Below, piece after piece: positions 19-42,468 of a DNA stretch of 48,622 nt (position 1 is the stretch's first letter; each line of letters begins with the position of its first letter). The stretch lies in sequence record PV615260. One strand, 5' to 3'. Source of the DNA: Shigella phage vB_Shig_1KOFFS. A program made the translations under genes and the position numbers. The notes under the pieces are model-generated. The model made no database searches, was not told the DNA's origin, and saw nothing but the letters and a program-made list of their open reading frames with translations.

Positions 19-92
19 ACAGCACTAATTGCTAAATAATGCCCGCCGCGAGCGGGTATTATTACCCCATCAACCAATCAGGAGCTAACGCC
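19..92 (+). promoter_or_regulatory. Conserved promoter-like cassette (copy 1): CAGCAC-N5-TGCTAAA box, 22-bp GC hairpin spacer, TATTAT
   Basis: Dyad-like box followed by hairpin gcccgccgcgagcggg, -10-like TATTAT, then RBS GGAG and ATG at 93. Confidence 0.5.
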
Positions 93-329
93 ATGAACAC
101 CAAAACCATTGCAGACACCATCAAGATTGTACCAGCAAAAGCGCAAGTAGTATCGCGCCACCTGGTTAACCTTTCTCGCCTGTGCATGGCCGACTACATG
201 GCGAACCCTTCAGAGAATGGCCTTGATGGTGTAGTCGGTGAGATTTATTTTCGCGCAGGTTACGGCCTGGAAAGTGTGGCCATGTATGAGCAAATGGCCG
301 AAGGTTTTTGCATTTACGGTGACGAATGA
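93..329 (+). CDS. hypothetical protein (78 aa)
   Basis: ORF with ATG at 93 preceded by GGAG; the ORF-track start at 39 lies inside the upstream regulatory cassette. Confidence 0.55.
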   Translation: MNTKTIADTIKIVPAKAQVVSRHLVNLSRLCMADYMANPSENGLDGVVGEIYFRAGYGLESVAMYEQMAEGFCIYGDE

Positions 330-577
330 TGATTGTCGAGACTGGTCGCGCTGCCGTATGGCAGCACGCTAAAGAAGCAGGAATAAGTGATGATATCGTG
401 AAGATCGCAAAGTATTTCGATATAAAGGATATCTCCATCGTGTTCGGCGGGAAGTTTACTTACCTCCACGAGCGCCCGGTGAAGCGCACGCGAATAGCAG
501 TGGCAACGCGAGCGGAGGCGGACGCGCTGAAGATGTTCATCCACGAGTCGAAGCAGCAGAAGAAATATTACAAGTAG
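326..577 (+). CDS. hypothetical protein (83 aa)
   Basis: ORF whose ATG overlaps the upstream stop (ATGA coupling). Confidence 0.5.
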   Translation: MMIVETGRAAVWQHAKEAGISDDIVKIAKYFDIKDISIVFGGKFTYLHERPVKRTRIAVATRAEADALKMFIHESKQQKKYYK

Positions 578-672
578 CGGGGAGGTGAAGAATGCGATAT
601 ATTGCGATCTTATTTACGGCGATTCTATTCACGATCGCAATCATTAACTATGCAATTCAATTGGGATAAATT

Positions 673-1803
673 ATGTCACCTAAAATCACAGACGAAGAAT
701 TCCTGGCCGCCCGCGAAGAAGGTAAAACATACCGCGAGATCGCGGAAGAGTTCGGCATGAACATTCGAAGCGTTGAACGTCGCGGCGTTCGCCTGGCGCG
801 ACAAGGACACCTACACGGAAACGCCCACGTTGCGAAGCATATCCCGGACGGCTTCGGCGTCAAAGGCACGTCGACGATGATTCGCGCGGACGGCTCCGAG
901 GTCGTTCGGTGGGTCAAGTCGGAAGTAGACCGCGATCGCATGGTCGCGCTTATGGAGGCAGCGCAGGCGGCTTTCTGCGAAGACCTTCCGCGAGCCGAAC
1001 CGCAACCGCTGGATGAATCGAAGTTCTACATTGAAGATCAGCTTGCCCTGTACCCGATCTTCGACTTGCATATTGGGGCAATGGCGCATAAGCATGAATG
1101 CGGCGAGAACTATGATACCAGCACGGCAGAGAAGGTTCTAAACCGCTTCTTTGATTATTCCGTTTCGGTTGCTCCGCAATCACAAAAGGCGGTTTTGTTG
1201 GTCGGCGGTGACTTCCTTCACAGTGACGGCCTGGACGCAGTAACCCCGGCAAGCGGTCACGTTCTCGATCAGGACAGCCGATACGCAAAACTTGTTTATG
1301 TTGCCATTCGTTCGCTGCGTCGCGCCGTTTCGCTACTGCTTAACAATCATGCAGAAGTTGAAGTGCAGGTGATTGAAGGCAACCACGACCAGGCCGGGAT
1401 GATCTGGCTACGCGCAGCGCTGGCGGCGTTCTATGAGAATGAACCGCGCGTTTTCGTTGATGTTAGTCCGGCGATCCTGCATCGCACCTTGTGGGGCAAA
1501 ACCATGCTGGGATATACTCATGGCCACACGATGAAAAAGCCGGAAACGCGCCTTGCTGCGATGGCTACCGACTTCCGTAAGGAGTTCGGCCAGTGCGACT
1601 ACATTTACACGCATTCCGGCCACTGGCATCACCAGACTGTAACGGAACACTCGTTAGGCATTGACGAAGTGCATGGCCAGTTGGGCGCAAAAGATGCCTA
1701 CGCAGCACGCGGCGGATGGCGATCATATCGGCAGGCTGCGGTGATTCTGTACAGCAAAGAATATGGCGAAGTAGGTCGCTTTATCTATCGCCCGAACATG
1801 TAA
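673..1803 (+). CDS. Calcineurin-like metallophosphoesterase with N-terminal helix-turn-helix domain
   Basis: Phosphoesterase motifs DLHIG, GGDFLHSDG and GNHD in order; N-terminal segment TYREIAEEFGMNIRSVERR resembles a sigma region-4 type HTH. Confidence 0.6.
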   Translation: MSPKITDEEFLAAREEGKTYREIAEEFGMNIRSVERRGVRLARQGHLHGNAHVAKHIPDGFGVKGTSTMIRADGSEVVRWVKSEVDRDRMVALMEAAQAAFCEDLPRAEPQPLDESKFYIEDQLALYPIFDLHIGAMAHKHECGENYDTSTAEKVLNRFFDYSVSVAPQSQKAVLLVGGDFLHSDGLDAVTPASGHVLDQDSRYAKLVYVAIRSLRRAVSLLLNNHAEVEVQVIEGNHDQAGMIWLRAALAAFYENEPRVFVDVSPAILHRTLWGKTMLGYTHGHTMKKPETRLAAMATDFRKEFGQCDYIYTHSGHWHHQTVTEHSLGIDEVHGQLGAKDAYAARGGWRSYRQAAVILYSKEYGEVGRFIYRPNM

Positions 1804-1841
1804 CCACAACGGCCCCGCGAGGGGCCAACAAGGAAAAACCG

Positions 1842-2330
1842 ATGAATAGAAATATCTGCATTTTCGATCTCGATGGCACGCTTTCAGACGGAACCCACCG
1901 CTTGCACCTGCTGCCGAAAAAAGATCTCCACCTTACAGAAAGTTGGAGCGAATTTAATGGCGCGTCAATTGGAGACAGCCCAATCCAAAGCACTATTGAC
2001 GTGGCGAATGCGCTTTATCGATCCGGAATGACCGTTATCATCCTGACTGGCCGATCCGATGAGGTGAAGACCGAAACAATGATTTGGCTTGACCGCTACG
2101 GGGTGAAATATGACAGCCTAATCATGCGCCGCGCCATCGATAACCGTAAAGACACGGTAATCAAGGAGGAGGAGTTACGCAAAATCGGGCTTGATCGCAT
2201 TGTTGCGGCATGGGATGATTCACCAAATGTTATTGCGCACTTTCGCGGCCTGGGTATTACGACTTACCAGGTCTGCGACTACGGCGACAATCTTCAGGAT
2301 CATTTAAAATCTCACGGAGTAGACAAATGA
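1842..2330 (+). CDS. HAD-superfamily phosphatase (possible 5-prime deoxynucleotidase)
   Basis: N-terminal FDLDGTL (DxDxT) motif; ATG at 1842 preceded by AAGGA. Confidence 0.6.
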   Translation: MNRNICIFDLDGTLSDGTHRLHLLPKKDLHLTESWSEFNGASIGDSPIQSTIDVANALYRSGMTVIILTGRSDEVKTETMIWLDRYGVKYDSLIMRRAIDNRKDTVIKEEELRKIGLDRIVAAWDDSPNVIAHFRGLGITTYQVCDYGDNLQDHLKSHGVDK

Positions 2331-2908
2331 AAAATGTAATTATCCTCAACGGAGCGCCGGGCATCGGAAAGGACACTATCGCGGAAATCATCTCGCGGAA
2401 GTGGCAATACAAGAACCTTAGCTTCAAACAGCCGATGTTTGCCATTGCTCGTGCTGTGCTGGGATCGGCTGATTTTGCACGCTTTACTGCCCGATACCAC
2501 GACCGCAAGCACAAAGAAGTGAAATGCGATTTTTTGGGCGACCGTTCTCCGCGTGAATTCATGATTCACATTAGCGAAAATTTCGTCAAGCCGACCCTGG
2601 GCAAAAATCAGTTCGGCAAGTTGCTTTGCGATTCAGCGCTAACCTCGCCGTTTAACTGCATCGTCAGCGACGGCGGATTCGATGAGGAGGTGGAGCACGT
2701 CGCAGCGCATGAGGCGCTTAACGTGTTTGTCGTCCGCCTTCATCGTGACGGCATGACATTTGAGGGTGATAGCCGCAAGCATATTCGACGCCAGGATCTG
2801 ATTTGCGACACTTACCATGAACTCGATTTTGATATGACCACTGGCGAGCCGGAAGACGACGCGCAAAAAATCCTTGATATGGTGTCAGATGTTGCATTAA
2901 AATTATAA
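2327..2908 (+). CDS. P-loop kinase, dNMP kinase-like
   Basis: Walker A GAPGIGKDT at N-terminus; overall pattern resembles T4 gp1 dNMP kinase from memory; start overlaps upstream stop. Confidence 0.55.
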   Translation: MKNVIILNGAPGIGKDTIAEIISRKWQYKNLSFKQPMFAIARAVLGSADFARFTARYHDRKHKEVKCDFLGDRSPREFMIHISENFVKPTLGKNQFGKLLCDSALTSPFNCIVSDGGFDEEVEHVAAHEALNVFVVRLHRDGMTFEGDSRKHIRRQDLICDTYHELDFDMTTGEPEDDAQKILDMVSDVALKL

Positions 2909-2942
2909 AGTTAATGCCTTTATTATCACCACCTTAACGATT

Positions 2943-2970
2943 GGGAACCTTGATGGGTTCCCTTTTTTTT
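2943..2970 (+). terminator. Rho-independent terminator
   Basis: Stem GGGAACC / GGTTCCC with loop ttgat, followed by T8. Confidence 0.75.
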
Positions 2971-3034
2971 GTTCTTAATTTGGCCTAATGCATATATCAT
3001 CACCTTACCATTTAACTAACAGAGGTTGCATATC

Positions 3035-3250
3035 ATGCGAGAATTCATCAACGCGGCAACCAATAGCAGCGGTGGCGTTGCCCTCGCGGGATCTGCAACC
3101 GGGCAATTAATCATTGCTGCCATTGGCTTATTTTTCATGATTCTATTCGGCTCCTTCGGCGCGTGGTTGCGCTGGCGAGATTCAAAGGCGCTTCGTGAAG
3201 CGCTGGAAGTCGGGGATATCAAAACGGCGATGAAGATCAGGAGTAAATAA
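3035..3250 (+). CDS. Holin, probably pinholin
   Basis: 71-aa product with long hydrophobic N-terminal region and charged C-terminus, immediately upstream of a SAR endolysin; RBS AGAGG. Confidence 0.6.
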
Positions 3251-3251
3251 C

Positions 3252-3734
3252 ATGGGGATTAAAACGCGGGTTACATTCGCGGCGGCGGTGGCGATCGCGG
3301 TCGCGTTCCTCCCCGAAGTGGAGGACACGAAATACAATGTTTATATGGATATCGCTGGCGTCCCGACAGTATGCGAAGGCATCACAGGCCCGGACGTTAT
3401 CAAGGGGAAAACCTATACCCGGTCAGAGTGCGACGCGCTTTTAACCAAGCATATCCAGGTGGCGAAGCGAACCGTTGACAGCAAAATCAAAGTCGATGTT
3501 CCGGATACCTTCAGGGCGTCGATGTACAGCTTCACGTTCAACGTTGGCGGCGGCGCGTATTCTGGCAGCACCATGCTGAAATTAACGAACCAGGGCCGAT
3601 TGCGCGAGGCGTGCGAGCAGCTATATCGCTGGACGTACTACCGCAACCCGAAAACGGGAAAGATGGAGAAGTCGAAAGGCTTGTATAATCGCCGGGTTCA
3701 GGAATATCAACTATGCATTAAGGATCTGAAATGA
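3252..3734 (+). CDS. SAR endolysin (GH24 lysozyme)
   Basis: Hydrophobic N-terminal signal-anchor-release segment ([15 protein letters not shown]) followed by the canonical E-x8-D-x5-T catalytic triad ([16 protein letters not shown]). Confidence 0.8.
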
Positions 3735-4156
3735 GCACATTAAACTTTCAACGAGCGCTGGCCATCGGCTTTATCGTGTGGGCGGCTGCCGTTGTTTCCG
3801 GTTGCGCGTCAAGCGTCCCAATCCTTTCCGATCTGGTTGGTAGCAAGCCGGATATGACGGCGCAAGTAGGCGCGGAGAACGTGAAACAGGCGGTTGGCGT
3901 GACCAACAAAACGGACACGTCGAGCAGGCAGGAGACCACGTTTAAGGAGTCGGCTGTAGGTAAAGTTGACACGTCGAACAAGAAATCCGTAACGACCTCC
4001 AGCATTCACGCCAACCAGATCACGGCGGACAAGATCGAGATCCGTAATGATGAAAGCGGAAGCCTGGTTCCGTGGCTGATTGGTAGCATTGGGGTAGTAA
4101 TGCTGGCTATCGGGGTGTTCGGTATTTGGCGGGAACGAAAAAATAAAGGGGCGTAA
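3731..4156 (+). CDS. Unimolecular spanin (lipoprotein with C-terminal transmembrane domain)
   Basis: Signal peptide with lipobox VVSGC at N-terminus and hydrophobic helix [22 protein letters not shown] at C-terminus, as in T1 gp11. Confidence 0.75.
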
Positions 4157-4168: not shown

Positions 4169-4690
4169 TATATGTACCGCTTGACGTGCAATAGCGCTAC
4201 TCCATCTTCATCGTTAAGACCATGTTCAACCGTGTTGGTTGCGGCCATTCCTTGATAGAGCAAGATGAGCGCGGCACGCAAGTAATTTTCTGGTGTGATC
4301 TGTTTCACGCAAACAAGCCTGTGAACTTCCGTTATCAGATCTTCCACCTGGTTTCCCGAAAAGCTGTTCATCACTGAGTTGGTCAAGGTGCATCATCTCC
4401 CACATATATCGGTTATTCATCCCTTCGAACGACCGGAAATCAAAGCCTATCTCCCTGTTATCCGGCCCCGTACACCACACAGCGCCGTTTTTTCCGTCAA
4501 GGTATCCATTCGTATAGCTTCGCGCTAAAAACTCCTTAGAGACCATTGAGGCGAACATACGTTGCGACACGTTGGCAGCTTTTGCCAGGCGAGGCGCTTC
4601 GCGGTGCATGTAAACGAACTTCGCAAAATCCTGCCGGGTGAACTCCCGGCGAGATTCGCAGAACTTGTAAATGTCAAGAATGAACATCAA
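4168..4690 (-). CDS. hypothetical protein with apparent frameshift
   Basis: ORF 4226-4690 and ORF 4168-4386 overlap in different frames; protein-like composition switches frame near the A4/T4 run at 4359-4362. Confidence 0.4.
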
Positions 4691-6259
4691 TTACCTCATG
4701 AACGACGGGTTGATAAAGACTTCGGAATCCATCACGCAGATAAAGCCTAATTCCTCCATCTTCGGCAATAAGCGTTCCTTAATCTTTTTGCTCACCCCAG
4801 CCTGGCCTTTGAAGATCTTCAGGTTGCGGCAGGCGTTATAAATGCCCTGGACGGTCATAACACCTTTTGCCTGCTTGCAACGACTGGCGATAACGTCATA
4901 CAGCGCTTTAATTTCCGCGCCCTCACCAGCAAATCCGGAAGAGTCAGCAGATGACAGGTAAGTTTTGCTCAACTCATGGAACATGATGATCGCTTCGTCA
5001 ATGGTTGCCGTGTCGATCTTCTTCGAACGCTTACCGCCGGGTTGCCAGTTCCGGATCGTGTGGATTACCGACGCCAGACGCATAACCTGCTTATCAAACT
5101 TACCCATCGCGCCGCGAAGCATAGTATGCGAATACTTGCCGCCGTCACCTAACTCAGGTTCTAATTCCTGGCGGGCCTTATTCAGTCTCCGCATTGCCGC
5201 GTCAGTAACCTGCAACTTAATGTTCGACTCGCTCATAATGTCATGAATCAGCCGGAAGTAATCCGCCTTCAGTGACTGGTCGATCGGCTCATAGGTCGAA
5301 TTCCCGTTTTCGTCGATGAACACGCGTTCGCCCAAACGTGTTTGCTCACGAACCAAAAGGAAACGCTCCGAGACACCGATCCCGCGAGAACCCGCTTGCA
5401 TGATGGCGTCGATGGTTTCATCCTGGGCAATTACGCAAATGCAGCCCAAAGCAACGAATGACATATTATTGCTAACGTCGGCACGAGCGATCGACACGTG
5501 GCCTTTATCCCATGCTTTGAGCACCAGTTCGCTGTTCGTCTTCTTGCCGCCATCGTTGCCATACGTGATCCCCAAAAGGCTGTTAACCGCAGTTGCCTCA
5601 TCGGAAATAACGGCAAAGTTTCCCTGGCGGTTGTTAATCTTCGCCAGACCTTCCGGGGTGGTATCGGATACCGGGAAAGTTAGGTCACACAATTTTTCAA
5701 GTTTCTCTTCCAGTTCGTCACGATCTTCGAAAAGTTTCACCATATCAGATTGCGACAACTCCCCTTTAAGCGCCTGCTTGTTGGCGGACAACTTCGCCAT
5801 GATTTTCTTACGCTCCTTCTTGCGCGACTCGTTAATGCGCTCGACTTCGGCCACGATCGGATCGATGGCCAGCGAGTTAATGGCAGACTTACCAGCGGAA
5901 GGCGGCTGCGACGTGATAACGTAAAGCGTCGTCGGTTGCTCACTGCCGTGATACTCGACCCAAAAGCGACCCATCATCGCGGCGGATACGGTTCCGAGAA
6001 AGTGCATGTAAGCGGATGATTCCGGGAACTGAACAGATCTGGCGGCATTGAGCGCCAGCTTGCCGACCACATCGTAATCATTGGCGATCGAGATTGTTGG
6101 GTATTTATCCGCGTTTACGTCGATATCTTTGGGCTTTGGCCAGAATGAAACGGAGTCACGATACCCGTTCGCACGAATCGCAACGCGCAGAGGACTGATC
6201 CCCTCCCTTTCTGCGATGGCGATAATATCTTGCGGTGATACGCGGTCATTTAAAAACAT
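4691..6259 (-). CDS. Large P-loop NTPase-like protein of unknown function (522 aa)
   Basis: Walker A-like PPSAGKS and Walker B-like AVISDEAT; RBS CAGGAGCAAGGG before ATG at 6259. Confidence 0.55.
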   Translation of the reverse strand: MFLNDRVSPQDIIAIAEREGISPLRVAIRANGYRDSVSFWPKPKDIDVNADKYPTISIANDYDVVGKLALNAARSVQFPESSAYMHFLGTVSAAMMGRFWVEYHGSEQPTTLYVITSQPPSAGKSAINSLAIDPIVAEVERINESRKKERKKIMAKLSANKQALKGELSQSDMVKLFEDRDELEEKLEKLCDLTFPVSDTTPEGLAKINNRQGNFAVISDEATAVNSLLGITYGNDGGKKTNSELVLKAWDKGHVSIARADVSNNMSFVALGCICVIAQDETIDAIMQAGSRGIGVSERFLLVREQTRLGERVFIDENGNSTYEPIDQSLKADYFRLIHDIMSESNIKLQVTDAAMRRLNKARQELEPELGDGGKYSHTMLRGAMGKFDKQVMRLASVIHTIRNWQPGGKRSKKIDTATIDEAIIMFHELSKTYLSSADSSGFAGEGAEIKALYDVIASRCKQAKGVMTVQGIYNACRNLKIFKGQAGVSKKIKERLLPKMEELGFICVMDSEVFINPSFMR

Positions 6260-6384
6260 GCCCTTGCTCCTGATTGGTTAATCGTTCGGCTAATCATATG
6301 CCGTATTAAATCCGAGATCCAGTGATAATCTAAACACGCTTGAAAAACGCGCTTGGATTATCGGGGCGCACGGCCCCGAACCAG

Positions 6385-6822
6385 TCACAGGTATTTAGCT
6401 TCGAAAGTCGTTCCGTCCGATACACTGAAGCCAACTTCCTCGCGGTACAGCGTCCAGCGGCATCCGTCACGGTCGAAGATGTATCCAGCAACCGCACCGA
6501 GCGCACGACCGCTTTCGACCTGGTAGCGCTTGCCGACGCTGAAGGATTTTTTCATCGGGTTGCTATGGTCAAGGCCGACGCATTTTAGCGTTTTGGTTTT
6601 GAGTTCGATGAACGTCGCAATCGCCGCTCCGCCGTCGCCAGCAATAAACAACTCACCGCTAACGCCTACCGACAAAATAATGCGCTTCTTCTTCAGTTCG
6701 ACGCTGTCATATACCATCATTGACACGTTGCCTTCATCGTCGACGCGGGCGGAATAAAGGTTGTTTTCATTGATGTTAACGGCACGGCTTGACGTGCATT
6801 TAATCTTGATTGACTTCGCCAT
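6385..6822 (-). CDS. hypothetical protein (145 aa)
   Basis: ORF in the leftward operon. Confidence 0.5.
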   Translation of the reverse strand: MAKSIKIKCTSSRAVNINENNLYSARVDDEGNVSMMVYDSVELKKKRIILSVGVSGELFIAGDGGAAIATFIELKTKTLKCVGLDHSNPMKKSFSVGKRYQVESGRALGAVAGYIFDRDGCRWTLYREEVGFSVSDGTTFEAKYL

Positions 6823-7005
6823 TTATTTTCTTTCTCCCATCTCGATATACAGGTTAACCAGATCCAGAAAGTCAGCTTTATTTCTGCAACTCAATTTAAA
6901 GCCAACGTGCGACTCAATTTTATTTTGCATCGCAGCCAGTGTTGCGCCGCCATTATTCATCCTGAGAACTTCGCGGCATACTTCGGCGAGTTTTTGAGAT
7001 ATCAT
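6823..7005 (-). CDS. hypothetical protein (60 aa)
   Basis: Small ORF whose ATG overlaps the upstream stop. Confidence 0.4.
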   Translation of the reverse strand: MISQKLAEVCREVLRMNNGGATLAAMQNKIESHVGFKLSCRNKADFLDLVNLYIEMGERK

Positions 7006-7205
7006 TTTTCAATCACCCTTATTTTGATTGTTTCGCAGGCGCTTTCTATTTCGCTGATAATTCGATTCACCCTTAAATCAATCATTGTTTTATGATGGTA
7101 AATGTCAACAATGCCGACAACCGCTAACACCATGATCGAAAAGATGAGCGCACCAACCCCGTGCATGGAAAAGAGTGTGGCCATTACTGCGATCGTGAAT
7201 TTCAT
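7002..7205 (-). CDS. small membrane protein (67 aa)
   Basis: Mostly hydrophobic product (MKFTIAVMATLFSMHGVGALIFSIMVLAVVGIV); ATG at 7205 preceded by GGAG within a regulatory cassette. Confidence 0.5.
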   Translation of the reverse strand: MKFTIAVMATLFSMHGVGALIFSIMVLAVVGIVDIYHHKTMIDLRVNRIISEIESACETIKIRVIEK

Positions 7206-7280
7206 TTTGGTTTTCTCCGTTGCGTTTCTATGGGGTAATGCTACCCGACTTTCGCCGGGTAGTTTTAGCAATTCGTGCTA
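7206..7280 (-). promoter_or_regulatory. Conserved promoter-like cassette (copy on - strand)
   Basis: Reverse complement reads TAGCACGAATTGCTAAAAC, then hairpin tacccggcgaaagtcgggta, then CCCCATAGAAAC, RBS and ATG; the TAG is the stop of the upstream gene. Confidence 0.5.
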
Positions 7281-7970
7281 TTCTAGATAATTCGCCTGGA
7301 ACACGGCGCGGGCAAAACCTCGCGGAGTAATGGAGCGCAGCATTTTAGTCCTTTCTGACCTTCCGCCTAAAAACTTCCAGGCCCAAAAGAAATTCACGCC
7401 TTCCACTCCATCCGGCGGAGGGAGCCGTTTCGGTTCGACAAAACCGTTTCCGTGCCATATGCACGTTTTCTTCGTGTAATTGTCACAGTTGGGCATTTTT
7501 GGATGCCACACAGGTTCGTTTGGAGAAACATAGCCGCCGAAGTCGCGCGGGTGAAAATAGAAGTCAGGCTTTCGCCATAGTGACGACAATTTTCCAACCG
7601 GGTTTTCGACCATCCAGGGGCAACCATACTTATTGCCTAATTGCTCGACCATCTTCGCATCCCCTGCTGCGGATAATACGTCATTATCTTCCCTTACGTG
7701 CTTGATTCCGCTATGCGCTAACAGCGTGCATGACGGGAAGGCAAAAATGAAGTCGGGATCTGGAATGCCGAGAATCGATCGCTTCACGTCAAAATCCTTG
7801 TCGATCCAAATGTTAACATACTGGATATTGGGGTGAACCATTCTAATGCTGTATTCTCCGTGGTCGCCGGAGTCGGCATTGAAACAATACACCTTGCATC
7901 CCTTGATGGCCCACGGCAGGCCCATGATGCCGGAGCCGTCGAACATGCAGTAAATAACCTTGTCTTTCAT
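7278..7970 (-). CDS. Short C5-cytosine methyltransferase-like protein (230 aa)
   Basis: Motif I-like FDGSGIMG, motif IV-like FPSC and motif VI-like MVENPVG in canonical order; too short to hold a normal target recognition domain. Confidence 0.45.
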   Translation of the reverse strand: MKDKVIYCMFDGSGIMGLPWAIKGCKVYCFNADSGDHGEYSIRMVHPNIQYVNIWIDKDFDVKRSILGIPDPDFIFAFPSCTLLAHSGIKHVREDNDVLSAAGDAKMVEQLGNKYGCPWMVENPVGKLSSLWRKPDFYFHPRDFGGYVSPNEPVWHPKMPNCDNYTKKTCIWHGNGFVEPKRLPPPDGVEGVNFFWAWKFLGGRSERTKMLRSITPRGFARAVFQANYLE

Positions 7971-8193
7971 ACTTTACACGCCCCAATGAACATTCTTTTC
8001 GATTCCAGCGTCAGCGTGACGCCATCCAGGGAGGACTGAATGAGGCGACTGCCAGGAACCGTCCCGATGATGTAGCGGCCTTTCGACTTCGTGATCGTGA
8101 TCTGAGTGAAGCCGGAGGCGCGTTTCATGCGGAGAACGACGCGGCCATGCGCGTTCAGGACGGAGAGAATGTAATCAGTCTTCGGATGGTTCA
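7967..8193 (-). CDS. hypothetical protein (about 75 aa)
   Basis: ATG at 8193 preceded by AAGGAG; ORF-track N-terminal extension lacks an RBS. Confidence 0.45.
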
Positions 8194-8265
8194 TTGTGTA
8201 GCTCCTTCGTTTGTTGGTGTGGGACAGTATGCCACTATCCAGCCATGTTGTTTTAGCAAAACGTG

Positions 8266-8643
8266 CTATGCCGGAACGCAGGTCGCGTAATCTTGGCTGA
8301 TGTAGATCGTGCGCTGAACGCGAGGTTCGAGATCTCCGAGTTCCTGGATGGTAACATCGTTGCTTCCTACCCGGCACGGAACCGATCCAAAGATAAACTC
8401 GCTAGTCTGCTTGTCGTTGATTTGCCATACATTACCGCCTTCCTTTTTGACAACCAGGAAAGGCGCACTGTCTGCACTGAACTCTTCCGGGCCACGACCG
8501 TAGTAATGCGTGATCGCAGCTTTGGCCGCAGCGCTGAAGGCATCGGTAACGTCATTGGTCGCCTTGTCGCGGATGGCCTTGATACGTTCTTCAGGCGATC
8601 CGATGATGTAGGAAAAGCTGTTCGAAATGGTAACTGTTCGCAT
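8266..8643 (-). CDS. hypothetical protein (125 aa)
   Basis: ORF with RBS GAGGT before ATG at 8643. Confidence 0.5.
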   Translation of the reverse strand: MRTVTISNSFSYIIGSPEERIKAIRDKATNDVTDAFSAAAKAAITHYYGRGPEEFSADSAPFLVVKKEGGNVWQINDKQTSEFIFGSVPCRVGSNDVTIQELGDLEPRVQRTIYISQDYATCVPA

Positions 8644-8882
8644 TATATTTTAACCTCGTTTTGGTGGATGAAGTCGGCGACGTAATGGCATTCGATCGGA
8701 TTCTCGATACCCGCCAGCACCTCGCACAACCCGTTATTCAGTAGCTGGCAATGCTGGCACTCCGCGCCGCCAACACTGGCAATGACAATGGCGATCCCGT
8801 TGCATGAACCGCCGAACATTCGATGAGGGAAGGGGTAAGCATCGCAGGTGCAAACCACCTCCCCGGCTCGCAGTTTCCTCAT
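8643..8882 (-). CDS. Cys-rich small protein (79 aa), possible zinc-binding
   Basis: Seven cysteines including CTC and CQHC clusters; ATG at 8882 overlaps upstream stop. Confidence 0.45.
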   Translation of the reverse strand: MRKLRAGEVVCTCDAYPFPHRMFGGSCNGIAIVIASVGGAECQHCQLLNNGLCEVLAGIENPIECHYVADFIHQNEVKI

Positions 8883-9073
8883 ACCTGACCCTTCTCGATG
8901 CAGAAAACCCAATCACGAGCGTCAACCGCAAAGCGTGCAACGCCGTCGAGCACCACGAAGACAGTAAACCAGTTGACGCCGCGACCCTTCTCGATATCGG
9001 TTACGGTACGGAACAGATCGCTTGCGCCATATTGAATTTTATCCCCGACGACTACATCCGCAAATGCTTTCAT
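8879..9073 (-). CDS. hypothetical protein (64 aa)
   Basis: ORF directly downstream of a regulatory cassette, RBS AGGAG. Confidence 0.5.
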   Translation of the reverse strand: MKAFADVVVGDKIQYGASDLFRTVTDIEKGRGVNWFTVFVVLDGVARFAVDARDWVFCIEKGQV

Positions 9074-9148
9074 GGTTAATCTCCTGACTGGTTTCGATGG
9101 GGTAACTATACCAGGCCTTTCGGCCCGGCGTTTAGCAATTCGTGCTTA
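9074..9148 (-). promoter_or_regulatory. Conserved promoter-like cassette (copy on - strand)
   Basis: Reverse complement reads TAAGCACGAATTGCTAAACG, hairpin ccgggccgaaaggcctgg, extended -10-like TGGTATAGT, then CCCCATCGAAAC. Confidence 0.5.
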
Positions 9149-9427
9149 TTTCACTGCTTTCTTCGCTGCCTTGTACGCCTCTTTGAAAGCCGGAACATCT
9201 TCGACCGGAATCCAGAAGCCGGAGCCATAGCCATCATCGTAGCAGGGGCATTGGTCGCAGTAGTCGCCCCAGGTTTTCTCTTCGCCGCCAACAGAGAAGC
9301 CAGTGGCCATTTCGCATAACGCCTCCTCAACCGCCTCGATCTTGTCGGCGTCGCTATCCATGATAACGAAGTTCCACTTGCCGTTATACTCGCTGCCAAG
9401 GTTGATTGATTCGCGTTGAAGTTTCAT
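9146..9427 (-). CDS. acidic small protein (93 aa), first gene of leftward operon
   Basis: Asp/Glu-rich composition with CDQCPC cluster. Confidence 0.5.
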   Translation of the reverse strand: MKLQRESINLGSEYNGKWNFVIMDSDADKIEAVEEALCEMATGFSVGGEEKTWGDYCDQCPCYDDGYGSGFWIPVEDVPAFKEAYKAAKKAVK

Positions 9428-9785
9428 AGCTTTAGACCCTTTGGCTCAATTCGTTTCGTTGAAGTCATCATAGCAAAGTCGATCGGGTGGCTTTTGACAA
9501 AAAATGCTATTCCTGCGATTGCTGATTATTCCACCGATTCGGAATAGTGGAATAGATGGTGATTGCACCTGATTCCCTGGTGATTAGTTTTGACGAATCA
9601 TGATTGCTTTTGATTGTTTCATTTTGCGCAATGACTTGGTGGAGTGTTTCATGATTTGCAACGAATTGCATAAATGTATGCACCATGCACGCAATTTGCC
9701 GATCGAAGCTGGCAGAACTGGAGTTGTGTTTCACCAACATTTACGCCGTGTGGGAGTGTGGGGGAGGGATAATCTTACCTAAAAA

Positions 9786-9897
9786 TTGCGCAAAAAGCGA
9801 CCAATATAAGCCCATATATAGATAGTAAGTATATGATAAATAATAATATTATTATTATTACTCTCTATCTTTATATATGTTTGGTAAGATTTCTCAG
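9786..9897. repeat. Inverted repeat copy A (about 110 bp, 47-bp AT-rich core at 9818-9864)
   Basis: Reverse-complement match to 42604-42715; the core atagatagtaagtatatgataaataa(t/c)aatattattattattactct differs at one position. Confidence 0.85.
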
Positions 9898-10014
9898 GGG
9901 AGGTTATGGATTCCTCTTGCGCAAGCCATAATTTTTAGATGTTCCGCCGCGAAAAAATGTATATATGGATATATGGGGGATGACAGCAAATCTTCCCAAA
10001 CACGCGCAAATCCT

Positions 10015-10043
10015 TTGACACCAAGGCTTGCGGCCAGTATTAT
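10015..10043 (+). promoter_or_regulatory. Sigma70 consensus-like promoter for the rightward early operon
   Basis: TTGACA at 10015-10020, 17-bp spacer, TATTAT at 10038-10043, about 50 bp upstream of ATG 10091. Confidence 0.6.
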
Positions 10044-10090
10044 CACCTTCCGAAACATTACCAAACGCCGTAAGTGTGGGGGAAACACAA

Positions 10091-10669
10091 ATGCAATACA
10101 AAGGCTATGAGTTCGAAGAAGTCGATGTGTCCGAGTGGATGCAGTACGACGCAGAAAAGCAGGCCGCGTACCATGAATGGCTGCAATCCATCACGTTTGG
10201 TGACACCACCAGGCCAGCAGGGCGGAGCCAGGAAGCCACTAAACCTGAAGGCACATTCACTGGCAACCGCTCTTCCGAGATCCGGCGCATGTTCCTGGAT
10301 GGCGGGCGGCGTATCCAGATGACGGCGGAGGAGTTCGCGGAGAAGTTCGGCGTTCATCCGGTCGACAACCATTTCCGCAGGCCGTTGCTGAAACTCCTGG
10401 AGCCGGGCGAGGTGTTGCGCGTGAGCCTGGGGGCGGGGTTAATCTCCGTCTTTACCGAGTTCGACGCAATGACTAGCTCAAACCTGGAGGTTGAGGCATA
10501 CAGGCGGCAGGGCGCTACCTCTGAGCGGGAAAGGATTAAGGGTTTAGTGGCCGCTCTTGCCGTAGACTTTGCCGGGGATGCTCTGGCCGGGATTTACAAG
10601 GCGAACTTGTTCGCGGCTATCGATCTTGGGTTGACCGCCAGCGATATCAGCCAGCACGGCAAGCAATAG
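10091..10669 (+). CDS. hypothetical early protein (192 aa)
   Basis: ATG at 10091 preceded by GGGGGA; ORF-track extension to 10028 would overlap the promoter. Confidence 0.55.
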   Translation: MQYKGYEFEEVDVSEWMQYDAEKQAAYHEWLQSITFGDTTRPAGRSQEATKPEGTFTGNRSSEIRRMFLDGGRRIQMTAEEFAEKFGVHPVDNHFRRPLLKLLEPGEVLRVSLGAGLISVFTEFDAMTSSNLEVEAYRRQGATSERERIKGLVAALAVDFAGDALAGIYKANLFAAIDLGLTASDISQHGKQ

Positions 10670-10741
10670 CACTTTTTGTTAAAACGCGATCGGGGTGGCT
10701 TGCTATAGTAACCCCATCGAAACGAACAACGGAGCACCACA
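10667..10741 (+). promoter_or_regulatory. Conserved promoter-like cassette
   Basis: TAGCACTTTTTGTTAAAAC, hairpin GGGGTggcttgctatagtaACCCC containing TGcTATAGT, then CCCCATCGAAAC and RBS GGAG. Confidence 0.55.
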
Positions 10742-11236
10742 ATGAAATCTCGCGAATACCTAAACACCCTTAATGGCCTTATCTACTGGCTGGAAGATGA
10801 CGCAGTGATGATGCGCAAGCGCGAAGGCAATATTGTGAAGAAGTCGAATATGGCAGCGGCGATCTTCTTTGCGATGGTCGGCAACGATACACTTCTGCTT
10901 GTCGAGGCGGAGCCGGAGCAAAAGAGCATGACCATGAACGAATTCTCTAACTTCCTGGCTGGCATCGACAAGAGCACCACGACTGCAACCGCACAGACGG
11001 CCATTCAGGGCGGAGCCACCCACATTGCCATCGACGGTAACGGCGACGTCTTCGCATTCAAGATGCGCCCGCGCCCCTGCCTGCCGGATGACGACGACGC
11101 GAATGACTACCTGGGCGAATGGCTTCGCGGGTCTGAGCAGTACGGCCACATTGCGCGAACAGTCTGCTTCCTTGGCAACACTGGCCGCGAGCACCGCAAC
11201 TGGCTGGAACTCTGCTTCCAGATCCCACAGCAATAG
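10742..11236 (+). CDS. hypothetical early protein (164 aa)
   Basis: ORF downstream of cassette; contains an acidic DDDDAND stretch. Confidence 0.55.
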   Translation: MKSREYLNTLNGLIYWLEDDAVMMRKREGNIVKKSNMAAAIFFAMVGNDTLLLVEAEPEQKSMTMNEFSNFLAGIDKSTTTATAQTAIQGGATHIAIDGNGDVFAFKMRPRPCLPDDDDANDYLGEWLRGSEQYGHIARTVCFLGNTGREHRNWLELCFQIPQQ

Positions 11237-11304
11237 CACTTTTTGCTAAAACACGATCGGGGTAACGCGGTATTATTACCCCATCGAAACAGAGGAGCAA
11301 AAAC
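11234..11304 (+). promoter_or_regulatory. Conserved promoter-like cassette
   Basis: TAGCACTTTTTGCTAAAAC, hairpin GGGGTAAcgcggtatTATTACCCC, CCCCATCGAAAC, RBS GAGGAG. Confidence 0.55.
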
Positions 11305-11527: not shown

Positions 11528-11848
11528 ATGATTCACGAAGTTAAATCCGGCGAGCAAGTAGTGGCCACCATCACGCAGCGCCACGTTGTAGCCTTCCAGA
11601 TTAACATCCCTGGCACGTTCGATATGCAGTCGCTTGACGTGCCAGTTTGGGCCAACACGGTTGCCATTGATGCCGACGGCTCGATTTGGGCCTATGAGTC
11701 GACCGTTGAAAATGTTCGCCTGCTGAGTTACTCGCCTGATTCATGGGTGGATAAGGGGCCGGGCGGAAACAAAATGGTTCAGGTGGGCGAAATGGCTCGT
11801 TTCCCTGATTGGGCAAAATCGAAGATTGACCTTCGCGGCCTGAAATAG
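11528..11848 (+). CDS. hypothetical early protein (106 aa)
   Basis: ATG at 11528 preceded by GGAG. Confidence 0.5.
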   Translation: MIHEVKSGEQVVATITQRHVVAFQINIPGTFDMQSLDVPVWANTVAIDADGSIWAYESTVENVRLLSYSPDSWVDKGPGGNKMVQVGEMARFPDWAKSKIDLRGLK

Positions 11849-11934
11849 CACGCATTGCTAAACGCCAGGTCAGTGGATCGGGCATAATTATCACGAAGTC
11901 GATTAACGACCAAATTATGCAAGGAGACAGGATA
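11845..11934 (+). promoter_or_regulatory. Conserved promoter-like cassette
   Basis: TAGCACGCATTGCTAAAC, 22 bp, CATAAT, then RBS AGGAG before ATG 11935. Confidence 0.5.
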
Positions 11935-12192: not shown

Positions 12193-12386
12193 ACCAATTC
12201 GAATTCCTGGCGCGGGCGCACCGTGCGCTTGCAATGTACGCCTTCAGCAAGAACATGAAGATTATCAGTATTGAGGTTGAGTTCAACAATATCAGCATTT
12301 CCGGCTATGTTGGCGGCTCGTACCACGTTACAAAATTCAGCTTCCCATCGCTGGCCAGCCTGGAGCGTGAGGCGCTCGGTTTCTGA
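12189..12386 (+). CDS. hypothetical early protein (65 aa)
   Basis: ATG overlaps upstream stop. Confidence 0.45.
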   Translation: MNQFEFLARAHRALAMYAFSKNMKIISIEVEFNNISISGYVGGSYHVTKFSFPSLASLEREALGF

Positions 12387-12459
12387 ATAGCACTTTTTGC
12401 TAAACGCCCGGTCAGGAGATCGGGCATAATGGCCATACACCAAACAACGGAGATTAACC
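12387..12459 (+). promoter_or_regulatory. Conserved promoter-like cassette
   Basis: TAGCACTTTTTGCTAAAC directly after stop TGA, 22 bp, CATAAT, RBS GGAG. Confidence 0.5.
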
Positions 12460-13330: not shown

Positions 13331-13512
13331 AAGTAAGCAAAAAGAAACTCGCGCTGTATTGGGCCTTCTTCTTGGTTGGCCTGGCGCTGCATGATAATGT
13401 AGACTGGCATCCGGTCGGCATGATTTGCATCATCATCGGGTTATGCCGACTGTCAGAGATTGACGGGTTCCGCCGTGGATATAGGGCAGCGTTCAGCGGC
13501 GAAAAAAAATAG
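13327..13512 (+). CDS. small membrane protein (61 aa)
   Basis: Two hydrophobic segments (LALYWAFFLVGLAL and VGMICIIIGL). Confidence 0.45.
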   Translation: MKVSKKKLALYWAFFLVGLALHDNVDWHPVGMICIIIGLCRLSEIDGFRRGYRAAFSGEKK

Positions 13513-13591
13513 CACTTTTTGTTAAAACTGCCGTAACGTCATTTGATAAAGTGGCGTTACTGAAGTGAACAATCCAATCAGGAGCAACGCA
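13510..13591 (+). promoter_or_regulatory. Conserved promoter-like cassette (variant hairpin)
   Basis: TAGCACTTTTTGTTAAAAC, hairpin CGTAACG..CGTTAC, TGATAAAGT, RBS AGGAG. Confidence 0.45.
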
Positions 13592-13810: not shown

Positions 13811-14298
13811 TGAACACCGTCAAACTTATGGTTGTCAACGTGGCCCGCGAACGTGAACGCCACCTTATCGGCTGCGTATTCGATGCCGTCGAGGTTCGCG
13901 ATCCGCTCGGAATGGCTCGCGTAATCAATGGCGGATACCTTAACGAATTCATCATCAACCCGCTTGATACTGACGAAGACTTGACCATCCGTGTTGGTGG
14001 CGAGCCGGAAAACGCGCTTTTCCACCTGCGGAAAGTATCGAAGGCGTCGCAGCGCAAGTTGCTGGTTCGCGCACTGAAGCGCATTGCGAAGGAGCGCGGT
14101 TACACCGACGCATACATCCGCAAGTTCGGCACGTTCGCTGGCGTCGGAGATTGGGCGCGATCCTGGGCCGACTTATACTTCGATAAATCCGGCAAATTCT
14201 GTTCCGCGCATACGGACTGGCTGCATGGAACCGAACACGATCCAGTTAGCGGCCACGAGTGGTACGAATTCATTGAGGATGGATTAGACGCCCTTTGA
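13810..14298 (+). CDS. hypothetical early protein (162 aa)
   Basis: ORF whose start overlaps upstream stop. Confidence 0.55.
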   Translation: MNTVKLMVVNVARERERHLIGCVFDAVEVRDPLGMARVINGGYLNEFIINPLDTDEDLTIRVGGEPENALFHLRKVSKASQRKLLVRALKRIAKERGYTDAYIRKFGTFAGVGDWARSWADLYFDKSGKFCSAHTDWLHGTEHDPVSGHEWYEFIEDGLDAL

Positions 14299-14373
14299 TA
14301 GCACGAATTGCTAAAACGAACGTCCGGGGATGGTGCATACTATCCCCACACCAACGAACAAAGGAACTCACAC
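14299..14373 (+). promoter_or_regulatory. Conserved promoter-like cassette
   Basis: TAGCACGAATTGCTAAAAC, hairpin GGGGAtggtgcatactATCCCC, RBS AAGGAA. Confidence 0.5.
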
Positions 14374-15233: not shown

Positions 15234-15269
15234 GATGGCGTTTGTGTTCCAAAGTGGATAGCCAGCAAA

Positions 15270-15343
15270 TAGCACGAATTGCTAAAACCGATCAGGGGTA
15301 AGCTGGTATAGTTACCCCATCGAAACGAAACGGAGTTACAGCA
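15270..15343 (+). promoter_or_regulatory. Conserved promoter-like cassette
   Basis: TAGCACGAATTGCTAAAAC, hairpin GGGGTAAgctggtatagTTACCCC with TGgTATAGT, CCCCATCGAAAC, RBS GGAG. Confidence 0.55.
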
Positions 15344-19495: not shown

Positions 19496-20806
19496 ATGAA
19501 TAACATTAAGATGGACGACTATAATCAAATCTTTAATGGTGGCGCTGGTTATGCGTCAACCCTCGCGTCTATCGCGGCAAGATTTGGAACAATGTCGCAG
19601 GTTGAAGAGTTCTATCATGAAAACGGCATGGCGAAGAAAATCGTTGACGTGATCCCGGAAGAGATGGTCGCTCCCGGCTTCCAGCTAAACGGCATTTCAG
19701 ATAACACCAAGTTTCAATCGGAATGGGACGGGTTAAATCTGGAGCCGCAAATCACCGATGCTCTTTGCTGGGCGCGGCTGTATGGTGGCTCATACGTCCT
19801 GGCGATGGTTAACGATGGTCGCGCGTTGACTTCGGCAGCGAAGCGGGGTAAGCCGCTCGAATCGATCGTTGTTTACGACCATGATTCCGTTTCCGTCGCA
19901 GAGGAGGAAACCAGCCCACGAAGCCCACGATTCGGAAAGCCTAAAATGTACGAGGTGAAGCCGCTAAACGGTGGGCAACCGTTCAAGGTGCATTATACCC
20001 GGATGCACTACATCGACGGCGAGCGAGTAACAAACAAGGTGCGCCAGCTAAACAACGGCGCTGGTGGTTCGGTGCTGAACAAGTCGATCATTGAAGCGAT
20101 TCTTGACTACGACTATTCGGAATATCTGGCAACGCAGCTACTGAAGCGCAAGCAGCAGGGCGTTTGGAAGGCGAAAGGCCTGGCGCTAATCTGCGACGAC
20201 AAAGAAGGCGAGTACGCCGCCCGGTTGCGCATGGCGCAGGTTGATGCTAATTCCGGCGTCGGAAACACGATCGGCATTGATGCGGACGACGAAGAGTACA
20301 CCGTTATCAACTCCGATATTTCAGGCATCCCTGAGTTCCTTTCCGCCAAAATGGATCGGATTGTCGCCCTGTCAGGCATTCATGAGATCGTGCTAAAAAA
20401 CAAAAACACTGGTGGCGTAAGCGCAAGCCAGAACACGGCGCTACAGACGTTCTACAAACTGGTTGACCGCAAGCGCAATGACGATTACAAGCCGCTGTTA
20501 GAATTCCTGTTACAGTTCATCGTAACGGAGGAGGAATACAGCGTCGAGTTCGAACCGTTGTCGCTGCCTACCGATGCGGAGAAAGCGGATATCTTCCAGA
20601 AGAACGCCAACGCGGCTCGCGGCCTCGTTACCGACCAGGTTATCGACACCAACGAAGCGCGTGATACTCTGTCGGCGTTAATTCCAGAACTGAAGCTAAA
20701 AGGCAACGCTCCGAAACAGAAAAAACTTCCGGATCGCGCCGCTGGTTCAGGCAGTACGCAAAGCGCTGAGATCTTAAACAACACGGAGGCGGATGATGAA
20801 AGTTAA
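19496..20806 (+). CDS. Portal protein
   Basis: 436-aa ORF following terminase with acidic C-terminus, conserved gene order. Confidence 0.75.
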   Translation: MNNIKMDDYNQIFNGGAGYASTLASIAARFGTMSQVEEFYHENGMAKKIVDVIPEEMVAPGFQLNGISDNTKFQSEWDGLNLEPQITDALCWARLYGGSYVLAMVNDGRALTSAAKRGKPLESIVVYDHDSVSVAEEETSPRSPRFGKPKMYEVKPLNGGQPFKVHYTRMHYIDGERVTNKVRQLNNGAGGSVLNKSIIEAILDYDYSEYLATQLLKRKQQGVWKAKGLALICDDKEGEYAARLRMAQVDANSGVGNTIGIDADDEEYTVINSDISGIPEFLSAKMDRIVALSGIHEIVLKNKNTGGVSASQNTALQTFYKLVDRKRNDDYKPLLEFLLQFIVTEEEYSVEFEPLSLPTDAEKADIFQKNANAARGLVTDQVIDTNEARDTLSALIPELKLKGNAPKQKKLPDRAAGSGSTQSAEILNNTEADDES

Positions 20807-39997: not shown

Positions 39998-40053
39998 TTT
40001 AAAAGCCTCTTATGTTGGTTGAGTAACGCAGATAATAGCATCAATGAACAGAT

Positions 40054-40076
40054 AAAAAAAGGAGCCTTTCGGCTCC
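40054..40076 (-). terminator. Rho-independent terminator (- strand) after ssb
   Basis: On the - strand: stem GGAGCC gaaa GGCTCC followed by T7. Confidence 0.7.
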
Positions 40077-40089
40077 TTTAGTTGTCAAA

Positions 40090-40551
40090 TTAGAACGGGA
40101 TATCATCATCGAAATCCATCCCCGTATTCCCTCCGCTGTTTTGCGTCTTAGGCGCTTGTTGCGGCTTGGGTTGTTGAGGCTGCCCCCACCCGGATTGCTG
40201 ATTGCCGCCGTTTTGCGAAGGCTCGCGCTGGCTGAATTCGAGTTGTGGCATAATCATTTCATTGTGGCTGTAAATTGTGCCGTTGTGCTCGCGGTTCACG
40301 ATCTGAAGCGTCCGGCAGGTGACGCTGATCACCTTATCCATTTGCAGCGCTTCGTCGTACCACTTAATCATGTTTTCTTTTGCAAAGAAAACGGCGCGGT
40401 AGTTCGTGTAAATTGTTTCGTCCTCGCCATCACGATTGCGGATCTTCATCCGCTCCGACAGGTCTACGGCGTACATTTTCCACGGCCCGTTATTATTACT
40501 GCCTTCCTTGATGTACGGTTCTTTTCGGATTACACCTGTTACAACATGCAT
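40090..40551 (-). CDS. ssb: Single-stranded DNA-binding protein
   Basis: Gly/Gln-rich linker and acidic C-terminal tail MDFDDDIPF typical of SSB; start probably the second ATG (40551). Confidence 0.85.
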   Translation of the reverse strand: MHVVTGVIRKEPYIKEGSNNNGPWKMYAVDLSERMKIRNRDGEDETIYTNYRAVFFAKENMIKWYDEALQMDKVISVTCRTLQIVNREHNGTIYSHNEMIMPQLEFSQREPSQNGGNQQSGWGQPQQPKPQQAPKTQNSGGNTGMDFDDDIPF

Positions 40552-40587
40552 TGTCATTCCTATGGGGCGGTTTCCCGCCCGGTTAAA

Positions 40588-41244: not shown

Positions 41245-41303
41245 GATAAAGTTTCCTTTTCCTGATTGGTAATGCGCACTATATCACAAGTGCGCACCAG
41301 TGT

Positions 41304-42350: not shown

Positions 42351-42383
42351 TGATATTGCTCCATTTGTGGTTTCGTTGCGTTA

Positions 42384-42425
42384 AGTATACGCATGACGAT
42401 TCCCGGCGCAAGTCAAAAAGTGCTA
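42384..42425 (-). promoter_or_regulatory. Promoter-like cassette variant upstream of the exonuclease operon
   Basis: On the - strand: TAGCACTTTTTGACT, 21-bp spacer, TATACT. Confidence 0.4.
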
Positions 42426-42468
42426 TCTGCGGTTGGTCAAAAAATGAGCGAAATTTACGTAAGATTTA

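Follow-up and report, generated by a model that had tools for sequence, protein, structure and literature searches.

Paired AT-rich modules with genus-specific repeats in the two control regions of a Webervirus genome as candidate replication origins of T1-like phages

T1 belongs to the seven classical coliphages, and, to our knowledge, the place and manner in which its DNA replication starts have never been established. Papers on T1-like phages have found no origin (PMC11447400, PMC7718038). We analyzed a stretch of 48,622 nucleotides (nt) from Shigella phage vB_Shig_1KOFFS (sequence record PV615260), called the window below at its full length, and found in its two main non-coding control regions, A and B, two copies of one module: an AT-rich core between opposed short repeats. 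Judged by its sequence, the DNA is that of a Webervirus (Drexlerviridae), a T1-like Klebsiella phage; in a BLAST comparison with phage records, both regions were 94–98% identical to hundreds of Klebsiella phages of this genus.

In Bacillus phage SPP1, some 32 kb of the linear map separate the two origins, each of which has repeated boxes beside an AT-rich stretch. SPP1 is a pac-type headful siphovirus, and its two distant origins are recognized by one phage protein, G38P; replication is of the theta type at first and is then driven by recombination with a phage exonuclease, an annealing protein, and a protein that binds single-stranded DNA (SSB) (PMC5615212). The phage of the window is likewise a pac-type siphovirus of similar genome size with two distant sites. 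There is, however, no sequence or protein homology between the two, and no G38P-like replisome organizer was named in domain scans or in the annotation of relatives. Moreover, oriL of SPP1 is located inside the initiator gene, whereas the modules are intergenic, and origin activity has been demonstrated in SPP1, whereas here we infer it.

In satellite phage P4, according to what Flensburg and Calendar in 1987 and Ziegelin et al. in 1993 are said to have described, the two separate cis elements ori and crr share the short repeat TGTTCACC, both are bound by the replication protein, and an AT-rich segment is present at ori. The crr site acts at a distance and in either orientation, and a single protein of 777 amino acids (aa) combines the primase, helicase, and origin-binding domains. 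In the window, by contrast, the 319-aa primase and the 522-aa DUF3987 helicase are two proteins, and domain scans detected no origin-binding domain of the P4 type; the annotation of the T1-family primase likens it to the primase part of P4-type alpha proteins. The repeat (C)GTGAACA of phage TLS (regions 1–588 and 28707–29165) is the reverse complement of the core of the P4 type I iteron TGTTCACC, which may be a coincidence. An AT-rich region of about 80 bp, with flanking short repeats bound by an initiator or helicase, is also characteristic of the origins of staphylococcal pathogenicity islands (SaPI ori) and of the archaeal ORB-DUE-ORB arrangement; opposed flanking sites suit the head-to-head loading of two helicases. 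The SaPI and archaeal origins are present in a single copy beside the initiator gene and have Rep and Orc1/Cdc6 as binders, whereas the module described here is duplicated.

The two regions also resemble OL and OR of phage lambda in being separated control regions with related sites and early promoters in a genome that encodes a Cro-fold protein. The lambda operators, however, overlap promoters and have no AT-rich core, whereas most repeats of the window lie upstream of the promoters, many of them direct and about 10 bp apart. In the searchable literature, a single intergenic repeat is discussed for this phage family, namely the conserved 21-nt ATAGCACnnnTTGnTAAAA repeat of T1-like phages (the ATAGCAC element), whose function the TLS paper counts among the questions still to be answered (PMC11447400). 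With about 20 copies in each genome, this element is kept across genera; every copy points in the direction of transcription, some 76 nt ahead of a start codon, whereas the module occurs twice and has genus-specific repeats. One copy of the 21-nt repeat was found beside the module in each of regions A and B.

The core of the module is the 47-nt sequence ATAGATAGTAAGTATATGATAAATAATAATATTATTATTATTACTCT, present at 9818–9864 (+) and 42636–42682 (−) with 46 of the 47 positions identical. This is exactly the one-base difference that a sequence-only reading of the window had described. The 47-mer, allowing up to 3 mismatches, had no occurrence in 100 dinucleotide-preserving shuffles. The longest inverted repeat returned by a repeat search of the window had the arms 9770–9875 and 42625–42730 (106 nt, 82%), and a gapped local alignment of 9770–9895 with 42604–42730 covered about 126 nt with two small indels and scored 146 versus 22 ± 2.4 for shuffled sequences (z of about 52). 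The inverted repeat of about 110 bp that had been proposed is therefore real, but its two arms, 9786–9897 and 42604–42715, do not match in one ungapped register (30 identities of 112, with the two small indels), and the shared segment begins 16 nt further left than 9786, at the AATCTTAC repeat. The flanking blocks TTGCGCAAAA / TTCGCGCAAAA, ACCAAT, and TTGGTAAGATTTCTC were found in both copies, as had been said. Low-complexity AT-rich sequence does not account for the match, since the 47-mer is specific and complex, the shared flanks contain GC, and the core is kept in both copies in other Webervirus genomes.

Region A (9428–10090, 663 bp) lies between the DUF5417 gene (9146–9427, −) and the first rightward early gene (10091–10669, +); it is a divergent promoter region and corresponds to the opening point of the T1 reference genome. 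Region B (42351–42845, 495 bp) is flanked by two co-directional genes, primase and exoVIII, both on the − strand. Both regions are truly non-coding. The 77-aa open reading frames (ORFs) at 9507–9740 (−) and 9877–10110 (+) were considered as small genes hidden in region A and rejected, being only 20–35 aa long or absent in close relatives. No Rfam family matched: two sub-threshold chance matches outside the module were obtained for region A and none for region B. An operon starts 200–250 bp from each copy of the module, as the sequence-only reading had noticed; in window coordinates, however, the operons face inward and not outward, since the gene at 10091 runs on the + strand toward copy B and exoVIII, from 42350, runs on the − strand toward copy A.

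Read toward the downstream operon, both copies have the same order of elements: AATCTTAC(C/G)TAAA, (T)TGCGCAAAA, ACCAAT, the AT-rich core, and TTGGTAAGATTTCTC. Copy A (9770–9895, +) comprises a left repeat, (G)GTAAGATT (9771–9778, − strand), the palindrome TTGCGCAA, ACCAAT, the core, and the right block TTGGTAAGATTTCTC (9881–9895, +), in which GTAAGAT occupies 9884–9890. Copy B (42604–42730, −), delimited by the repeat search and the gapped alignment, has GTAAGAT on the exoVIII side of its core (42609–42615, −, within TTGGTAAGATTTCTC), while on the primase side there is a cluster at 42722–42747 made up of the perfect 16-bp palindrome GTAAGATTAATCTTAC (42722–42737) and GTAAGAT at 42741–42747. 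Each core is bracketed by an inverted pair of GTAAGAT. Core A is inside the most AT-rich 60-bp segment of the genome (9814–9873, 87% AT) and core B in the second (42617–42676, 82% AT); the two cores rank first and second among both the 60-bp and the 100-bp segments of the whole sequence. A perfect 18-bp palindrome, AATAATAATATTATTATT (9839–9856), belongs to the window's longest (AAT)n/(ATT)n run, and the core palindrome (AAT)3(ATT)4 is set within a wider imperfect dyad, AGATAG...CTATCT. Folded as single-stranded DNA, module A forms a long imperfect hairpin (z = −4.5); module B was weaker (z = −2.8), and its 61-nt core alone was not significant.

GTAAGAT occurs 17 times in the window versus 3.7 ± 1.8 expected, and 12 of these occurrences are in the two regions, 2 flanking core A and 10 in region B. 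The latter region contains direct GTAAGAT pairs 8–10 bp apart and two perfect 16-bp palindromes, such palindromes being absent from region A. Its promoter-proximal repeats (42459–42539), namely two ATCTTAC units 8 bp apart (42525–42539), the palindrome GTAAGATGCATCTTAC (42469–42484), and one unit at 42459–42465, are located just upstream of the ATAGCAC-box promoter of exoVIII. On the side of copy A, a sigma-70-like promoter site, TTGACA-17-TATTAT (10015–10043, +; 11/12 consensus), would drive the gene at 10091 and is 150 bp downstream of the module.

Several smaller features were observed in region B. A direct 34-nt sub-repeat (42433–42466 / 42696–42729, 85%) is present together with an inverted repeat, and the left arm of the module (ATCTTACGTAAATTTCGC...AACCAA) recurs just upstream of the exoVIII promoter. 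A terminator-like hairpin follows primase (42797–42825, −), its stem being an inverted GGTAAGA / TCTTACC pair; a terminator is annotated there in phage Smiley. Together with another such hairpin between the module and the exoVIII promoter (42566–42583, −), it brackets module B, and CTTTTTTCATG at the site of the latter was also found in Ec_L1. A short transcript across AT core B, or transcriptional insulation of this core, is possible.

Within the genus, a query with the 136-nt module matched 347 phage records at 587 places, essentially all of them Webervirus. An alignment was made of 17 copies, nine of A and eight of B, taken from nine genomes. The flanks were copy-specific in these 17 copies (e.g., CCTAAAAATTGCGCAAAAAG in A and CGTAAATTTCGCGCAAAATT in B), so the duplication predates the genus. 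The core was near-invariant in the eight B copies and mostly the same in the A copies, where it had diverged in some genomes, strongly in KLPN1 and by a GATATACATACATATT patch in three contigs. The 1-kb surroundings were more conserved for B than for A (216 vs. 17 records at 95–99% identity). Neither A/B chimeric flanks nor any polymorphism common to A and B of one genome was found among the 17 copies; ongoing gene conversion within Webervirus was rejected for want of shared polymorphism, and the likeness of A and B is a genus-level pattern.

A supposed loss of copy A in phage mtp30 was rejected: both copies are present, and the assembly ends inside core A. The mtp30 assembly both begins and ends inside the core of module A, and its second most AT-rich segment is formed by the last 60 bases of the record; the AT core may be a break point of assemblies. 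A scan of viral contigs with a 15-mer gave mostly chance matches, only about 40 loci being Webervirus. Among plasmids and satellites, the sole match was CP124687.1, a 49.6-kb plasmid record of 'Paraclostridium bifermentans', in which positions 19950–20442 have 94.7% identity to region B over its full length; this record is most likely a misfiled Webervirus genome or a contaminant.

For the family, we compared the window and KLPN1 (Webervirus) with T1 (Tunavirus), TLS (Tlsvirus), Ec_L1 (Eclunavirus), and IME542 (Christensenvirus), i.e., six genomes of five genera. In all six, the two highest AT peaks were at the same two syntenic places: one in the non-coding stretch that separates the leftward from the rightward early genes, the conventional opening point of T1-type records, and the other immediately upstream of the exoVIII-erf-ssb operon. 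Comparison with related phages thus bore the module out, since it is kept across Webervirus and its architecture recurs in four further genera of Drexlerviridae. Regions A and B of each genome have in common a short repeat, rare in the rest of the genome and different from genus to genus: GTAAGAT in the window (2 in A and 10 in B, 5 elsewhere), GGAGGAT in Ec_L1 (8 and 8, 4 elsewhere), TGTAACA in T1 (2 and 4, 0 elsewhere), GTGAACA and TGGAACA in TLS (each 2 and 2, with 4 and 7 elsewhere, respectively), and GGTATAC (2 and 2, 1 elsewhere) and ATGTAAC (1 and 4, 4 elsewhere) in IME542. In Erwinia phage Snitter, CTATAACA was found 6 times in region B and 0 times in the rest of the 20-kb locus. The longer repeat forms TTTACGTAAGAT of Webervirus and TTTACGGAGGAT of Ec_L1 are clearly related, and both copies in these two genera have an inward repeat, the AT core, and an outward repeat, with adjacent units 8–10 bp apart.

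Local alignment with shuffling controls gave z values of 40, 38.6, 30, 16.7, and 13.7 between A and B of one genome, while B-to-B comparisons across genera did not exceed 9.4. This likeness within genomes indicates concerted evolution or co-evolution with a common trans-acting factor. The sequence-only reading had described the copies as an inverted repeat; they are, however, direct repeats in T1, TLS, IME542, and Ec_L1 and inverted only in Webervirus. In Ec_L1, module A is flipped relative to the flanking genes when compared with Webervirus. Taken with the direct copies elsewhere, this flip implies that the function is independent of orientation, unlike that of a promoter, and that the inverted arrangement is incidental. 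Copy A heads the leftward operon ending in the DUF3987 helicase gene, while the neighbor of copy B is the exoVIII-erf-ssb operon in all genera and, in Webervirus and Ec_L1, also the pair of primase and Cro-type genes. Runs of (ATT)n/(AAT)n, 9–22 nt long, were also observed in both cores of the window, KLPN1, TLS, and IME542 and in core B of Ec_L1, but not in T1; where present, in four of the five genera, they are the longest of their kind in each genome. The three-base periodicity of the putative unwinding element recalls the DnaA-trio idea, a speculative comparison.

Starting from the observed repeat, its anatomy, its conservation and pairing, and the genus-specific repeats common to both regions, we infer protein binding, unwinding, and initiation of replication by the modules. 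We read the paired modules as probable-to-doubtful in about equal parts, with a probability of roughly 0.45, as iteron-flanked unwinding elements that would serve either as two replication origins or as an origin and a helper site. Origins that are opened by a sequence-specific initiator, as in SaPI, P4, and archaea, are classically built in this way, with an AT-rich segment between opposed specific repeats spaced by about one helical turn. This reading was ranked first because of the AT core with its opposed repeats, the replication genes of the phage, and the precedent of SPP1; the genome encodes a primase, a DUF3987 helicase, a superfamily 2 (SF2) helicase, SSB, Erf, and exoVIII. No better candidates than the modules have so far been put forward, in our view, for the places where T1-like phages begin replication. 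The AT-rich, partly palindromic core would be the DNA-unwinding element, and an early phage DNA-binding protein would occupy the (TTTAC)GTAAGAT repeats on both sides of the Webervirus core. The bound protein would distort or melt the core, upon which the primase, with its zinc ribbon, and the DUF3987 helicase would start DNA synthesis with the host polymerase; the same protein would probably modulate the neighboring early promoters too. The two copies could be two origins, like oriL and oriR of SPP1, or an origin and a distant helper, like ori and crr of P4. Copy B, which is beside the replication and recombination genes and is more constrained, is probably the primary copy. A coupled pair of origins is a more tentative version, which we consider rather unlikely: one genus-specific protein would bind the repeats flanking both cores, bridge the sites about 30 kb apart, open the cores to the phage primase and the DUF3987 helicase, and set the adjacent early promoters, and the likeness of the copies would be kept by co-evolution or gene conversion.

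Two precise candidate sites, each about 130 bp long, with a position kept in five genera and a defined repeat per genus, make the question of the T1 origin directly testable. Weberviruses are widely used as Klebsiella therapy candidates, and their origin and early control elements are relevant to engineering and to targeting by defense systems or satellites. We found no description of the modules in the searchable literature, the coverage of which did not include the 2004 T1 genome paper. The identification of the module, its duplication, and its conservation throughout the family appear to be new, while the design itself (iteron plus unwinding element, or operator cluster) is of a known type.

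Several facts weigh against an origin. Copy A holds only two exact repeat units in Webervirus; no consensus IHF site and no DnaA box were found in region A or B; and region B, in T1, TLS, and IME542, is not next to the primase gene but several kb away from it. No origin-binding initiator was named by domain scans of the window proteins or by the annotation of KLPN1, T1, and TLS, and the protein that would bind the repeats is represented so far only by candidates. One of them is a Cro-type helix-turn-helix protein (43881–44282, −; 133 aa, phrog_2856), the gene of which adjoins primase. It gave Pfam matches to P22_Cro and YdaS below the cut-off and a PDB profile match to P22 Cro (E-value 7.6e-4); its AlphaFold2 model (pLDDT 87) had Xfaso-1 Cro and N15 Cro as top Foldseek matches, so that, according to the model, it has the Cro fold. 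This protein is conserved in every genus with a variable recognition helix, yet the helix of Snitter, SIQVVSEW, is near to SIQVVQQW of Webervirus although Snitter has the T1-like repeat CTATAACA and not GTAAGAT. The C-terminal end of the DUF3987 helicase was rejected as the binder, being nearly the same in Ec_L1 and TLS despite their differing repeats, and so was the phrog_2794 protein, which is too conserved across genera for genus-specific repeats; neither of the two had a sequence match in PDB.

The copies are, furthermore, 150–250 bp upstream of early promoters, and some repeats abut these promoters or, in region A of T1, overlap them, which fits a purely transcriptional role equally well. 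The modules would then be early control regions like OL and OR of lambda, with the repeats as operators of a phage regulator, e.g., the Cro-type protein, and the core as a bending, UP-like, or nucleoid-protein element. We regard this explanation as the main rival of the origin, though a somewhat unlikely one. It agrees with the near-consensus sigma-70 promoter 150 bp downstream of copy A and the ATAGCAC-box promoter downstream of copy B, with repeats directly upstream of early promoters (overlapping −10 and +20 in region A of T1), with the likeness of the two 16-bp palindromes of region B to dimer operators, and with the presence of a Cro-fold protein in every genus. In TLS, one of three intergenic sigma-70 promoters is upstream of recE (PMC11447400), which also speaks for it. 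The Webervirus repeats, however, are clear of the −35 and −10 elements, the nearest exact units being at least 25–35 bp upstream of promoter elements, and the core, at 150–250 bp, is too far upstream for an UP element. Transcription control by itself also leaves unexplained why the core is the most AT-rich segment in every genome examined, why an inverted pair flanks it, and why its sequence is conserved; the Cro-type recognition helix does not track the repeat sequence, and the module is flipped in Ec_L1. Origin function and promoter control can both be true, as in autoregulating plasmid initiators, and should the modules act on transcription alone, the family's early regulatory circuit would still be defined by them. 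It is improbable that the modules are architectural or insulator elements, i.e., that the cores bind H-NS, Fis, or HU or extrude cruciforms and so organize the injected genome or separate transcription units, with neither a dedicated phage protein nor an origin. The extreme AT content, the dyad symmetry of module A in the single-stranded fold, and the terminator-like hairpins bracketing module B are in line with such a role, while the genus-specific, GC-containing repeats common to both regions point to a specific binder encoded by the phage, the core is conserved in sequence beyond composition, and the dyad of module B is weaker. The sequence-only reading had seen here a duplicated regulatory module; the duplication, the location in both main non-coding control regions, the repeats of protein-binding type, and the conservation hold, but its option of a nucleoid-protein site finds no consensus IHF site.

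Packaging was also considered, with the module belonging to the pac site of a P22-like small terminase and copy B being a second or decoy pac. Region A corresponds to the start of the T1 reference, with a 2.8-kb terminal repeat annotated from position 1; this position aligns to about 9590–9600 of the window, some 220 bp left of core A. In addition, AAGATTT within the repeat of the module is similar to the pac core that PMC11447400 quotes for P22. Two pac sites, however, would yield two packaging series, whereas TLS has a single submolar pac fragment (PMC11447400), and the module occurs twice rather than as a single site, with a repeat that differs between genera. The repeats nearest to the T1 end (TGATT and GGAATA, 9497–9700) are present only in region A, outside the duplicated module. 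Packaging is a very improbable function of this module. This stretch to the left of module A has TGATT(G) seven times on one strand and inverted TTATTCC / GGAATA units, and its block 9497–9555 can be aligned to the T1 reference at the right end of the latter; the stretch looks like a pac region separate from the module. Still more remote is the idea that the inverted repeat is a recombination substrate that inverts the intervening 33 kb to give genome isomers, or a relic of such an inversion. It could draw on the 126 nt of inverted homology with its 46/47 core and on the exoVIII-erf-ssb block, which is inverted in Webervirus and Ec_L1 when compared with T1 and TLS. That the 33 kb can invert is nevertheless unlikely because chimeric flanks, as a crossover in the core would produce, are absent, 17 of 17 copies pairing A with A flanks and B with B flanks; the copies are direct in four other genera with the architecture kept, and the annotation of KLPN1, T1, and TLS lists neither an invertase nor an integrase. 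The genes adjoining the modules encode primase, exoVIII, the Cro-type protein, an HNH endonuclease, a DUF5417 protein, and a protein of unknown function, with no site-specific recombinase among them.

The gene map was based on the ORF map, the annotation of relatives (RefSeq phage KL), and Pfam and PHROG matches. A rightward block (39–4156, +; from the ORF map and domain scans) is followed by a leftward block (4226–9427, −), which includes the DUF3987 helicase gene (4691–6259) and of which the last gene by coordinate is the DUF5417 gene. The next rightward block (10091–37165, +) contains small early genes, terminase, and head and tail genes, and the leftward block after it (37709–44282, −) contains tailspike, SSB, Erf, exoVIII (41304–42350, −), region B, primase (42846–43805, −; with the zinc ribbon domain), and the Cro-type regulator. 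To the right of 44282, genes for an HNH endonuclease and then the SF2 helicase follow on the + strand. GC skew tracks gene orientation and is uninformative on origins. The HNH homing-type endonuclease gene (44305–44886, +; PF13392, E-value 4e-23) is an insertion that separates the Cro-type regulator from the SF2 helicase, the start of which it overlaps; KLPN1 has a mere 92-bp gap at this site.

The product of the first rightward early gene (10091–10669, +; 192 aa, phrog_10392) is mosaic. It has 39% identity to its KLPN1 counterpart, with the N-terminal two-thirds unrelated and the C-terminal 60 residues nearly identical, and the first genes of T1 and TLS can hardly be aligned with it. KLPN1, in which this gene differs, is also the genome with the most diverged module A. 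A 376-aa protein of the PHROG family 'DNA repair exonuclease' (673–1803, +) has an N-terminal match to sigma-70 region 4 (PF08281, E-value 4.7e-6, just above the cut-off), which hints at a DNA-binding or RNA-polymerase-contacting domain.

Around a dozen copies of AATAGCACnnnnnTGCTAAAAC, with a TATAGT-like −10 hexamer about 22 nt later, were found in the window, always oriented with transcription. The forward copies are at 18–71, 10665–10718, 11232–11285, 11844–11888, 12386–12430, 13489–13532, 14297–14341, 15268–15321, and 47322–47375, and those on the reverse strand are at 7224–7285, 8249–8269, 9091–9146, and 9492–9511. This is the 21-nt repeat of T1-like phages; it carries an inverted repeat, TAGCA-N5-TGCTA, and occupies the expected −35 position, somewhat like the MotA box of T4 middle promoters.

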